Source: an uncultured bacterium | GTDB taxonomy: Bacteria > Patescibacteriota > Minisyncoccia > Moranbacterales > UBA2206 | Direction: 5' to 3' | NCBI GenBank assembly: GCA_903937035.1 | Contig: CAIZXS010000005.1 | Span: forward strand, 1-60,745 | Length of the DNA stretch: 60,745 nucleotides | Shown: positions 8,709 through 28,565 of the stretch, one piece after another | Position numbering within the stretch: the first letter of the stretch is position 1 | Layout of the letters: every line of letters starts with the position of its first letter | Notes under the pieces: generated by a model | Database searches by the model: none | The model's input: the letters and a program-made list of their open reading frames with translations, nothing else | What the model was told of the DNA's origin: nothing | Translations under genes and position numbers: made by a program

Positions 8709-8781
8709 GGGCCTGTAGCTCAGTTGGTAGAGCGCTTCCATGGCATGGAAGAGGCAAGGAGTTCGATCCTCCTCAGGTCCA
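8709..8781 (+). tRNA. tRNA-Ala(GGC)
   Basis: Cloverleaf: acceptor GGGCCTG/CAGGTCC with G3:U70, anticodon arm CTTCC-ATGGCAT-GGAAG, T-loop TTCGATC. Confidence 0.95.
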
Positions 8782-8793
8782 CAGATTTAGTTT

Positions 8794-8867
8794 GGATGAT
8801 TAGCTCAGCTGGTTAGAGCGCACGATTCACATTCGTGAGGTCACTGGTTCGAACCCAGTATCGTCCA
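8794..8867 (+). tRNA. tRNA-Val(CAC)
   Basis: Acceptor GGATGAT/ATCGTCC, anticodon arm CACGA-TTCACAT-TCGTG, GGTTCGAACCC. Confidence 0.93.
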
Positions 8868-8891
8868 CAATTAAACATTCGCGTTATCCAA

Positions 8892-8963
8892 GCCTTCATA
8901 GCTCAATGGATAGAGCAAATCCGTCCTAAGGATGAGATGTAGGTTCGATTCCTACTGAGGGCA
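8892..8963 (+). tRNA. tRNA-Arg(CCT)
   Basis: Acceptor GCCTTCA/TGAGGGC, anticodon loop GTCCTAA, GGTTCGATTCC. Confidence 0.92.
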
Positions 8964-15362: not shown

Positions 15363-15480
15363 TCACTCCACACCATTTTTTGGGTCTGTAGCTCAGTTGG
15401 TTAGAGCGCTACATTGACATTGTAGAGGTCTCCAGTTCGAGTCTGGACAGACCCACCGTTTTAAAAATGGTGTGGAGTGA
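15363..15480. repeat. perfect 18-bp inverted repeat enclosing tRNA-Val(GAC)
   Basis: TCACTCCACACCATTTTT (15363-15380) and AAAAATGGTGTGGAGTGA (15463-15480). Confidence 0.85.
15382..15455 (+). tRNA. tRNA-Val(GAC)
   Basis: Acceptor GGGTCTG/CAGACCC, anticodon arm CTACA-TTGACAT-TGTAG, T-arm TCCAG-TTCGAGT-CTGGA. Confidence 0.93.
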
Positions 15481-15481
15481 A

Positions 15482-15556
15482 GTTAGAGCGCTACATTGAC
15501 ATAGTAGAGGTTTCAGAGGTTCCCTGCCGGCAGGCAGTGAGTCCTCTCACACCCAC
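15482..15556 (+). pseudogene. decayed tRNA-Val-like copy with a palindromic insert in the T-loop
   Basis: GTTAGAGCGCTACATTGACATAGTAGAGG..AGAGGTTC[CCTGCCGGCAGGCAGT 15523-15538]GAGTCCTCTCACACCCAC. Confidence 0.75.
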
Positions 15557-15565
15557 AAATAAAAA

Positions 15566-15641
15566 GGGACCATAGCTCAGCGGTTAGAGCAGGAAACTCA
15601 TAATTTCTTGGTCGCTGGTTCGAATCCAGCTGGTCCCACCA
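15566..15641 (+). tRNA. tRNA-Ile2(CAT) (lysidine-modified; elongator Met less likely)
   Basis: Cloverleaf with CTCATAA loop and encoded CCA. The body TAGCTCAG.GGTTAGAGCAGG..ACTCATAAT...TTGGTCGCTGGTTC closely resembles known bacterial tRNA-Ile2. Confidence 0.85.
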
Positions 15642-26617: not shown

Positions 26618-27811
26618 ATGTTCGGCTTAACAAAAAATGATTCTCAAAATCCACTAGGCGCAAAAAATAATACTCAGCCAGGCTCAAGCCCGGTAAACAA
26701 TTTCAACTTTGCTGATGCGCCGATTCACACGATGCAAGACGATCTAGAGAAAATAAAAAATCCCAACGCTACAATTACCGACAGAGCCCAAGCAACAGCT
26801 CCAAAACAAGGCACTAGTCCATTTTCTGTTCCCATGAACGAAAACTCTCAAGCATTCAATCAACTAGAGAACAACTCAGCCAGAGCAAAAATAATTGACA
26901 AAGAAAGTAGCCAATCTTTCTTGAAAACAAGTGGAAGATTTGACGCTGCGAATCTATTTAACAAATCTAATCCAAAGGATGCTGGATCAAATCTAAAAGC
27001 CGCCGCCAATACTCAGATTGACCGACGCTTTATGGCCTTCTCAGTCCTTTCCGTTGTATTGCTAATAGCCCTAACTGCAGCTGGATTTCACTTTTTTAAT
27101 AACAAATCTGATCCACCAGAAGAAGAAATAATAATACCAATTGAAGAGCCAACGCAACCAATCGTAACGCCCATCGAAAAGCCAATCCCAACTCCAAAAC
27201 CCACATTTTCATTTTCAGAAACTAATCCCAACTATCTCCGAGTAGAAAATGGGGCCTTAATTGGAGATAAAATCAAATCAACGATGGGACAAGTGTCACA
27301 AGAAGGATATGTGCCACCGATTGAATTCATCATGACCGATACACAAAATAAGCCCATCACATTTAAAGCTTTTTCCGAATTACTCTCCATTAAGCTTTCC
27401 CCATTGGTCTTGGAGTCATTAAGCGATAATTTCAGCCTGTTCGTGTACAATGACCTTGCGGGACCAAAAGTTGGCATTGCCGTTGAATCAAAAAACGACA
27501 CCAATCTAGGAAAAGCACTCGCTCAAGAAGAAGCTGCAATGGCCGATGAAATCAATCCGCTATTTTTCAACAATAACTATAATAAAGCGAAGCTATTCAA
27601 TAGCAGTGAATACGGCGGAGCGAAGATTCGTTATCAAAATATAATTTCGCCAGAAATGCTATCAATTGATTATTCGATCTACAAAAATAAATTTCTAATT
27701 GGAACCACTAAATTAACGATGAGAGCAATTATCGACAGACTCAATAACATATCAGCAACTAGGCAAACCGAAACTATTCCACCAGTAACGGGAAAAACAA
27801 CCAACAATTAA
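26618..27811 (+). CDS. single-pass membrane hypothetical protein
   Basis: Disordered N-terminus (IHTMQDDL), one TM helix, Pro-rich linker and a globular C-domain. Confidence 0.75.
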   Translation: MFGLTKNDSQNPLGAKNNTQPGSSPVNNFNFADAPIHTMQDDLEKIKNPNATITDRAQATAPKQGTSPFSVPMNENSQAFNQLENNSARAKIIDKESSQSFLKTSGRFDAANLFNKSNPKDAGSNLKAAANTQIDRRFMAFSVLSVVLLIALTAAGFHFFNNKSDPPEEEIIIPIEEPTQPIVTPIEKPIPTPKPTFSFSETNPNYLRVENGALIGDKIKSTMGQVSQEGYVPPIEFIMTDTQNKPITFKAFSELLSIKLSPLVLESLSDNFSLFVYNDLAGPKVGIAVESKNDTNLGKALAQEEAAMADEINPLFFNNNYNKAKLFNSSEYGGAKIRYQNIISPEMLSIDYSIYKNKFLIGTTKLTMRAIIDRLNNISATRQTETIPPVTGKTTNN

Positions 27812-27955
27812 TATTACCTGCTCACTTGAGGCTCAGATAAAAGATAATTAAATAAATTACTTTAATAATTCTATAAAATTAGCATAAAACCATCAATCTT
27901 TTCGGAATTTTCCAAAGTCGAACCACTCAGCGTTTAAGCCAAATCATATTTTGCA

Positions 27956-27984
27956 TTGACCCAACACTTTTTTCCTGCTATAAT
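27956..27984 (+). promoter_or_regulatory. strong sigma70-type promoter with no downstream CDS
   Basis: TTGACC-N17-TATAAT with extended -10 TG. Confidence 0.75.
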
Positions 27985-27990
27985 ATATAT

Positions 27991-28565
27991 ATTGATCGTT
28001 AAAAACTCGCCAGTCGGAACGGTAAAACAATTTTCAATCGCAATTTCCCCCTATCTGCGATTGAAAATTGTTTTACTGTTCAAGTGTTTCGATCATCGCA
28101 TCGAAGCCGCTCTGATCTCTAACATCAGAGACCCCAAAATAAAAACAAAAATTGGTATGTCCGCTTAGGAGAATAAATAAGTTATTAATCTAAGAGGACA
28201 TGCCAAAAATTTTTCTTAAAAATAAAAATAAAAAGAAAAATCACTAGCATTGTCTAGACTGTACCTTAAATTCAAAGGTGAAAATTCACCAGAGAATGGT
28301 AAAACAACATTCCCAAGAAGTTAGACTGGGGATAAACTTGCGTCATACACATAAAATACAGGCGTGTTATGACATTCATGCCACTCACCCGGCTAAGATG
28401 TCTCCGCACCACCTGTTAGTATATGACAAACACTCGGGGCGTTTAAGCCAAATTTATTTTTTATTGGGCGTCGAACGCCCTGGGTTTCCATACCTTATGA
28501 GAATCCGGGGAGAATATTAATAATAAACACGCGCGAAGAGGCACCAAAGAAAGGGTGTTTTTTTT
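27991..28565 (+). ncRNA. candidate large structured non-coding RNA (~570 nt)
   Basis: Promoter upstream, about 10 successive hairpins with G-U pairs consistent with the + strand, a long-range helix and a terminator-like end. No credible ORF. Confidence 0.6.

Follow-up and report, generated by a model that had tools for sequence, protein, structure and literature searches.

A conserved large structured RNA of Patescibacteria with two competing helices

Introduction

Several large bacterial RNAs, including OLE, ROOL, GOLLD and the raiA motif, are known from the literature as stand-alone, lineage-restricted molecules of several hundred nucleotides (nt), with many covarying helices, conserved unpaired nucleotides and no function that is obvious from sequence. 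All of these traits recur in the RNA considered here. It is encoded at positions 27956-28565 (+ strand) of a 60,745-nt stretch of DNA (contig CAIZXS010000005.1, assembly GCA_903937035.1), the whole of which is called the window below, from an uncultured bacterium of the Moranbacterales (Patescibacteriota, UBA2206). The host genome, G000, comprises 1.22 Mb and is 98.7% complete. A preliminary description of the window, made from its letters alone, had proposed an unrecognised large RNA at this site, with its own promoter and terminator.

The comparison with related genomes establishes a stand-alone, conserved structured RNA gene, together with its fold and a pair of competing helices. The preferred reading, to which a probability of roughly 0.6 may be given, is that of an uncatalogued, vertically inherited, stand-alone structured non-coding RNA (ncRNA) that acts in trans as a scaffold and contains a strand-displacement folding switch.

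Much of bacterial diversity belongs to the Patescibacteria (candidate phyla radiation, CPR), yet no lineage-specific structured RNA was found described for them; full-text searches of the literature brought up no paper on a Patescibacteria-specific large ncRNA, with supplementary files, a possible source of candidate motifs, lying outside that search. Term look-ups in two papers on ncRNA discovery (PMC5737381, PMC11109978) returned no mention of these phyla, and a look-up in a review of the Patescibacteria (PMC11665869) returned none of non-coding RNA or of the signal recognition particle (SRP).

Secondary structure and covariation

The structural analysis draws on three alignments: A1 (5' domain, 83 sequences), A2 (middle and 3' domain, 80 sequences) and A4 (16 close relatives). 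Consensus pairs for A1 were taken from RNAalifold, and 19 of the 26 predicted pairs, which fall in lower P1, upper P1 and P2, are compensatory, with both sides changed. The 51 consensus pairs of A2 are formed in 90.0% of cells, as against 35.6-46.7% when the partners are slid by 1-3 columns, and 43 of them show changes on both sides. The covariation score of A2 is 0.421. Slid partners score 0.067-0.114 and shuffles 0.201, and none of 500 shuffles attains the observed value. In A4, 91.1% of cells are paired versus 38.1-44.0% after sliding. A covariation test on homologue alignments had been named in the preliminary description as a check, and compensatory change proved strong in all three alignments; G-U pairs, which it had reported for the + strand, occur often in the pair tables. 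P3 has no single register in the MAFFT alignment A1 and was for that reason left out of R1, the covariance model of the 5' domain, and judged on A4 alone. A further alignment, A5, composed of model hits, was kept out of model building, as about 30 of the 71 rows in it match the palindromic P1 in antisense.

Eleven helices had been proposed from the single sequence, and eight of them are supported in the 16 close relatives. The 26-bp stem (P1), CTCTGAT/ATCAGAG (P3), ATTCCCA/TGGGGAT (P9) and the terminator hairpin pair as given in Table 1, TTCGAT/ATCGAA (P2) is paired in 97.9% of cells, and CTCGGGGCGTTT/GAACGCCCTGGG in 96.6%. The helix TTGGTATGTCC/GGACATGCCAA with its inner CTTAGG/TCTAAG is also supported but proves to be a lineage-specific insertion (5/16 sequences). 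TACCTT/AAGGTG is paired in 86.5% of cells without any both-side change, and the wider set supports a helix with which it competes. Two proposals in the 3' domain fell away, and a long-range rod takes their place: the local hairpin GTCATACAC/GTGTTATGAC is paired in 71.5% of cells, as opposed to 95.8% and 94.4% for the nested long-range alternative, and the multibranch closure CTCACCCGG/CCGGGGAG in 56%, with no compensatory change. UCACCC is instead an invariant hairpin loop. A four-way alternative pairing in the rod, in which palindromic CAUG cores would permit local hairpins in place of the nested helices, was also considered and rejected, since in six sequences the outer helix differs while the inner one is kept, and since the local hairpin is paired no more often than stated above.

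The P1 apical stem CAAUCRCA/UGYGAUUG and its C-rich loop AAUUUCCCCCUAUYU are almost invariant, and the A-rich linker that follows P3 occurs in distant-class homologues as well. The site after this linker (28153-28207) is an insertion hot spot, at which the present genus subgroup carries one hairpin, P4; other lineages (L016 and L058) carry there an unrelated, mutually conserved hairpin, UUGGGACCUACCCGG...CGGGUAGGAUCCCAA. Further downstream, P5 is paired in 75.8% of cells of A4, with compensatory changes in 3/8 pairs, and P6 is invariant where present (9/16). Among the 80 sequences of A2, P7 reaches 86.4% with 5/7 pairs compensatory, the present genus having two mismatches in it; rod helices 3-7 are 89-94% paired, with nearly all pairs compensatory; and the long 3' hairpin (helix 8) is 92.6% paired, with 11/11 compensatory. 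The apical loop of the rod is the UCACCC already mentioned (28385-28390), and its CACCC columns are invariant throughout the 80 sequences.

The + strand of the region folds at -182.9 kcal/mol (z -10.54), and none of 100 dinucleotide shuffles, the comparison suggested at the outset, is as low; the - strand gives a z of -6.15. No credible open reading frame (ORF) had been seen, and this stands: the + strand of the region contains only ORFs of 70 amino acids (aa; TTG start, 27956-28168) and 80 aa (GTG start, 28278-28520), both of which run through stretches affected by insertions or deletions in close relatives.

Conservation within Moranbacteria

The locus is single-copy in G000; the one additional match comes from its palindromic stem, read in antisense. 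Homologues, whose collection from related genomes had been proposed earlier, were found by BLAST in 56 of 61 such genomes (G000 counted), including 36/36 of the same family (f1). Four of the five genomes missed by BLAST (G037, G040, G056 and G060) were recovered by R2, the covariance model of the 3' core; the fifth, G054, gave no RNA match by either method. A profile search yielded full-length homologues in about 50 loci, and an exact degenerate pattern for the P1 loop motif was met in at least 119 contigs of species-representative genomes. After removal of duplicates, 126 distinct sequences were available. In the genus alignment the promoter, the terminator and many blocks are conserved, and compensatory changes in the hairpins are obvious.

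Among the matches listed, the record titles mostly read Candidatus Moranbacteria or Moraniibacteriota, or carry unspecific Patescibacteria or Parcubacteria labels. Some metagenome-assembled genome (MAG) records with the RNA motif (L068, L070, L080, L105 and others) are titled Bdellovibrionales, Micavibrio or Pacearchaeota. These titles are probably mislabels, and the RNA could serve to mark such suspected records.

It is scarcely credible that the region is non-functional, whether as palindromic repeat debris, as the remnant of a mobile element or as a pair of small protein genes. The minimum-free-energy fold obtained at first look is dominated by perfect hairpins, and the 70-aa and 80-aa ORFs do exist. 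Yet compensatory changes extend over dozens of pairs, the ORFs are crossed by indels, and a single copy with fixed synteny keeps both its promoter and its terminator. A mobile or repeat element is likewise contradicted by this one copy among conserved neighbours and by the P1 motif, for which the exact degenerate pattern, the only form searched, found no match in viral contigs.

Mutually exclusive helices

Alternative helices are familiar from rRNA precursors, whose folding is assisted by their leaders, and from riboswitches and attenuators, where an upstream strand pairs transiently and a downstream partner takes its place later, the two pairings being mutually exclusive. A comparable arrangement is found within the present RNA. 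A segment between P7 and P9, here called mid (28294-28307), nearly repeats the lower 5' strand of P1 and is consequently complementary to the P1 3' strand (28068-28081), about 215 nt upstream of it; a helix between these two excludes lower P1. In the 56 sequences for which both domains are aligned, mid and the P1 3' strand of the same RNA are complementary over a longest run of 10.98 on average, as against 8.33 +/- 0.22 for permuted partners, whose maximum in 200 permutations is 8.93. The corresponding duplex energy is -17.19 kcal/mol, versus -11.35 +/- 0.38 kcal/mol for permuted partners.

In 55 sequences the pairing can be followed position by position. At basal positions 1-3 of the 3' strand, mid pairs in 55, 54 and 54 sequences and the 5' strand in 18, 39 and 46. 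Both partners pair at positions 4-13, and from about position 15 on the 5' strand pairs alone. Of the 14 listed sequences with C rather than U at position 2 of the 3' strand, mid has G in 14/14 and the 5' strand in 4/14. Some lineages keep the mid helix through G-U pairs only, which argues for pairing rather than mere duplication. When duplex partners of the P1 3' strand are compared in 12 RNAs from distant lineages, the homologous mid site comes out best in 10. Judged from these alignments, two helices compete for one strand and both are under selection, as in a conserved switch. The predicted geometry is that of toehold-mediated strand displacement: 3 nt are free for the invading strand, about 10 bp would be exchanged, and the balance would be a gain of about 3 bp.

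In a co-transcriptional version of this switch, P1 would form first and mask its own 3' strand. The emerging mid segment would then bind the three basal nucleotides, usually left unpaired by the 5' strand, as a toehold, and displace the 5' strand across about 10 bp. The 5' domain would then be closed by a long-range helix of 13 bp, stacked beneath the apical hairpin of P1, and the exchange would free the purine-rich 5' strand and the leader. It may be that the 5' strand is a temporary mask that is displaced or removed. The mature fold has three near-invariant unpaired elements, namely the C-rich loop of P1, the A-rich linker and the loop with UCACCC. These probably serve to dock a protein or RNA partner, and the RNA would work in trans, scaffolding a housekeeping ribonucleoprotein peculiar to Patescibacteria.

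The same two helices could be exchanged by processing instead: an RNase III-type enzyme would cut the 26-bp P1 and remove the leader and 5' strand, the apical hairpin might be freed as a small RNA, and the 3' strand would pair with mid and so protect the new 5' end. This is unlikely, although several features are as it would predict, namely a near-perfect 26-bp duplex, a mid segment matching only the lower 13 positions of the 3' strand, and an apical hairpin whose sequence is conserved far beyond the needs of pairing. Against it, a metatranscriptome contig from a relative spans P1 uncut, though that contig could derive from a precursor or from DNA.

Possible targets of the C-rich P1 loop were sought in G000 with up to three mismatches, and only scattered, unconvincing matches were obtained. 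A 10-nt perfect complement to the loop core lies near position 317 of contig C7, in a stretch that, judged by its sequence, belongs to a variable region of 16S rRNA that is paired. The idea that the C-rich loops mimic the 16S rRNA 3' end was also dropped: that end is standard in G000, and a crude count of Shine-Dalgarno-like motifs (10-25 of 690 long ORFs per motif) gave no further lead.

Promoter, terminator and feature coordinates

The promoter of the preliminary description, TTGACC-N17-TATAAT with a TG extension, is present as described (Table 1). In a consensus scan it is the best of 11 promoter-like sites in a 1.6-kb region, shuffles of which give 5.4 +/- 1.9 sites, and transcription would start near 27991. 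A regular expression for TTGAC...TAYAMT matches at the expected place in 111 of the 126 distinct homologues. At the 3' end, the hairpin and T-run that had been read as a terminator were found again by the consensus scan, at 28535-28564. The predicted RNA is about 575 nt long here, and it ranges from about 260 to 640 nt in relatives.

A motif, GCGUUUAAGCCAAAU, lies at 27931-27945, about 11-25 nt upstream of the -35 element, and is identical to positions 28438-28452 within the RNA; in the nearest relative this identity is absent. The sequence AAGCCAAAU upstream of the promoter is conserved in the genus, with similar AAGCCA(W) elements in some other lineages, and AGCC[AT]A occurs within 70 nt upstream in 19/111 sequences, mainly of this genus. 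From its position, the motif may be an upstream promoter element.

Table 1. Coordinates of the RNA gene and its structural elements in the window
Feature	Coordinates	Strand	Remarks
Sigma-70-type promoter	27956..27984	+	-35 TTGACC, 17-nt spacer with TG extension, -10 TATAAT; 11/12 consensus positions
5' leader	27991..28016	+	Conserved GAWCRUUAAAAAC motif at 27994-28006; nearly invariant columns in A1 and A4
P1, 26-bp hairpin	28017..28081	+	28017-28042 with 28056-28081; 97.1% paired; lower stem covaries
P2 hairpin UUCGAU/AUCGAA	28088..28105	+	6/6 pairs changed on both sides; CCAACGCG-type loop in most relatives
P3 hairpin CUCUGAU/AUCAGAG, loop UYUCURAC	28110..28130	+	97.3% paired, 4/7 compensatory
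A-rich linker (ACCC)AAAAYAAAAAYAAAAA, single-stranded, conserved	28131..28152	+	(Nearly) invariant A columns in A1 and A6
P4, lineage-specific insertion hairpin UUGGUAUGUCC...GGACAUGCCAA	28153..28207	+	In 5/16 close relatives
P5 UUUUUCUU/AAGAAAAA with A-rich loop, and small P6 CUAG/CUAG	28210..28257	+	
P7, consensus GUUCUUU/AGAGAAU	28261..28297	+	Encloses P8 hairpin (28277-28290)
mid segment GAAUGGUAAAACAA	28294..28307	+	Complementary to 28068-28081
P9 hairpin AUUCCCA/UGGGGAU	28309..28333	+	89.7% paired, 5/6 compensatory; length variable among lineages
Long-range rod, nested helices and conserved internal loops	28344..28425	+	Apical hairpin 28380-28393
Long 3' hairpin	28432..28485	+	Outer CYGGGGCGUU/GAACGCCCYGG, inner GCC/GGC, A/U-rich loop
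Conserved GGUUUCCAUACC motif (28483-28494), then variable 3' tail	28483..28534	+	
Intrinsic terminator (GCACC...GGUGU and U-run)	28535..28565	+	96.3% paired; sequence kept in relatives

Occurrence in other Patescibacteria

The RNA occurs beyond Moranbacteria. In a class-wide sample, model R2 matched 6/6 genomes of the same order (G000 included), and in a phylum-wide sample it gave five weak matches in other classes. Outside the order, R1 matches 9/149 genomes and R3, a broader model of the 5' domain, 15/149; the union of the three models comprises 19/149 genomes in 12 families, which is a lower bound, since the E-values are rough and the filters strict. The distant loci, inspected by eye, have the overall architecture in common: a long first hairpin, often with a C-rich loop, a AAAACAAAAAC linker, and a mid segment able to pair with the hairpin's 3' strand. 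The UCACCC loop is visible in some of them, and a terminal CGCC...GGGCG hairpin often doubles as the terminator.

Genomic neighbourhood

Across the order, the RNA has fixed neighbours: PNPase and a protein of about 400 aa precede it, and a YraN/UPF0102 protein, a DksA/TraR-type zinc-finger protein and LspA follow. The gene after LspA is presumably ComM/YifB, to judge by its translation. The upstream protein of G000 (397 aa, window 26618-27811, + strand) has a disordered N-terminus, one predicted membrane helix and no Pfam match; its family is the conserved upstream neighbour in 29/35 loci examined, which makes it a candidate partner of the RNA. In three of four distant loci, the DksA/TraR-LspA pair lies downstream of the RNA on the same strand. 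Conversely, among 28 DksA-like loci across the phylum, 10 have an R1 or R2 match upstream on the same strand (E < 0.03, filters off), and an eleventh shows an upstream RNA by eye.

This placement raises the question of whether the RNA is a giant cis-acting leader or attenuator of the downstream operon (yraN-dksA/traR-lspA here, dksA/traR-lspA elsewhere), with the P1/mid exchange as its expression platform. The association with DksA/TraR-LspA in distant lineages and at the DksA-like loci would fit such a role, as would the U-run that directly follows the last hairpin in several lineages. Nevertheless, a leader is quite improbable. A terminator and then a fresh near-consensus -10 element separate the RNA from the next gene, both here and in L212, and the adjacency is therefore read as a conserved neighbourhood rather than as a leader-gene relation. 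In G000 the sequence between terminator and gene includes TGCTATAAT, which precedes yraN, so that the earlier statement that the RNA is not merely the leader of yraN holds; the same layout, with an independent terminator, is seen in L212. Other genes intervene in some lineages, namely yraN itself, an ORF between the RNA and the DksA-like gene that we take, from its translation alone, to be Lgt-like, and about 1 kb of ORF-bearing sequence in L202. The alternative helices leave the terminator hairpin out, and no riboswitch or leader family matches the RNA.

Known RNA families and the signal recognition particle

A scan of the whole window against Rfam 15 (4227 families) at the gathering score gave five tRNAs only and nothing in the RNA region. 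The tRNA genes form two clusters, at 8709-8963 and 15382-15638. With permissive filters, 15 chance-level matches to E 10 appeared in the region, the best with 22 bits as against a cut-off of 50 bits. Nine homologous loci, distant ones included, gave a single match to an unrelated microRNA model (E 0.075). Novelty had been made to depend on the lack of a match to Rfam families such as OLE, GOLLD, ROOL, RNase P, transfer-messenger RNA (tmRNA) and the group I and II introns, and none was found. The reported lack of an RNase P, tmRNA or SRP signature is also borne out: RNase P RNA (G000:C26:31844-32238, 117.5 bits) and tmRNA (C18:2964-3394, 144.1 bits) are encoded elsewhere in the genome, and neither the 6S RNA model nor the small and large SRP RNA models have any match in G000 or, at E up to 10, in the region. 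In descriptive terms the molecule is a large structured ncRNA: it exceeds about 200 nt, is non-coding, and combines covarying helices with conserved unpaired nucleotides.

As neither 6S nor SRP RNA is detected in this genome, either could in principle be represented by the present RNA in extremely divergent form, and it may be added that a neighbouring gene encodes a DksA/TraR zinc finger of the RNA-polymerase-binding type. This is very improbable. Neither model matches the region at the permissive threshold, the consensus fold has no closing stem between the 5' and 3' ends such as 6S RNA would require, and the RNA is 2-6 times the size of either.

The proteins of the SRP are equally elusive. 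G000 has no Ffh M-domain or SRP54 GTPase by Pfam and no match to NCBIfam ffh, and a six-frame motif scan of the genome, which is free of N, was negative; a single weak P-loop match is presumably a Mur-ligase-like ORF, given its GVTGTNGKTT-type P-loop. SRP RNA was found in 0/41 genomes (G000 and 40 relatives). SRP54-type GTPases score above the cut-off in 3/81 genomes of the class, all as P-loop-only fragments, and in 0/151 genomes of the phylum sample at E 1e-10, with controls positive in 14/14 well-known genomes. SRP genes reported beside a Saccharibacterium are read as host genes, given the single locus-tag prefix and the comparison with the naive host in PMC10768705. The signal recognition particle thus seems to be missing from G000 and from the phylum sample. 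An SRP RNA would then have no partner, and with Ffh and FtsY undetectable the present RNA cannot be a conventional one.

The failure to detect SRP RNA, Ffh and FtsY in G000 or SRP-type GTPases in any sampled genome of the phylum, and the position of the RNA gene beside lspA across lineages and, in one lineage, beside the Lgt-like ORF, suggest a further idea. The RNA might form the heart of a ribonucleoprotein peculiar to Patescibacteria and perform an essential task for which the usual machinery is missing in them; in the boldest version, this task would be co-translational membrane or lipoprotein targeting in place of the SRP. It is a speculation to which very little credence is given.

Expression

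Six metatranscriptome runs were present in the run index, each with about 1/20 of the sampled words, and four were compared at a likeness of at least 80%. Contigs with homologues of relatives occur in three of the four (X2-X4) and in X1 there are none. Two of them, of 162 and 180 nt with depths of 14.5 and 29.5, cover 28270-28360; another carries the P1 loop between the flanks of a relative; and in a further one 28133-28151 runs directly on into 28268-28310, which is what a relative lacking the P4 insertion would give. Parts of the RNA left uncovered in X2-X4 are uninformative, and the contigs show neither strand, ends nor level. They are a hint that the homologues of relatives are transcribed, with DNA carry-over possible.

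Interpretation

The lack of an Rfam match, the presence of RNase P RNA and tmRNA elsewhere, the single copy, the retained promoter and terminator and the covariation together identify this as an unrecognised large structured RNA, neither repeat debris nor a yraN leader. In this respect the preliminary description was right; part of its 3' domain fold is corrected here, and the family proves wider than one genome or genus.

Several points weigh against the preferred reading, a trans-acting scaffold with a strand-displacement switch. The consensus structures were derived from the same alignments that were used for the pair counts, and the relatives are not independent, so that the shuffle and slide controls overstate significance; the margin over these controls is nevertheless large. 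The duplex energy of mid is reached by 0-109 of 200 shuffles, which leaves single distant sequences weakly significant. The full P1 is thermodynamically very stable, and its displacement may need processing or a helper. Detection outside the order is patchy, with R2 matching 0/145 genomes from other orders of the same class, and rests on rough E-values. Finally, the metatranscriptome contigs that hint at transcription are short, come from relatives and may derive from DNA.

An RNA of 260-640 nt that is kept with its fold in genomes of about 1 Mb very likely has an important role. It joins a short list of large bacterial RNAs whose functions are still open, and its covariance models and alignments offer a starting point for annotation, for structure determination and for the hunt for partners in the phylum's few cultivable members. 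The toehold-like alternative helix would be a natural case of programmed RNA strand displacement, testable in vitro.

Comparison with known systems

OLE, ROOL, GOLLD and the raiA motif, the nearest in general character, differ from the present RNA in host and architecture, the host here being Patescibacteria and the RNA having no Rfam match. We know of no conserved mutually exclusive helix in any of the four. Like 6S RNA, the present molecule is a stand-alone RNA of the abundant, regulatory type, and its gene adjoins one for an RNA-polymerase-binding-type protein; unlike 6S RNA, it has no end-closing stem or large central bubble and no model match, and it is 2-3 times larger. SRP RNA (4.5S RNA or small cytoplasmic RNA) is a housekeeping RNA that is expected in every bacterium and is undetected here, whereas the present RNA contains nothing that matches its domain IV. 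The closest parallel to the proposed switch lies in rRNA leaders and riboswitches, from which it differs in involving neither a terminator nor a ribosome-binding site, and in placing both partner strands within one ncRNA, in what appears to be a toehold geometry.

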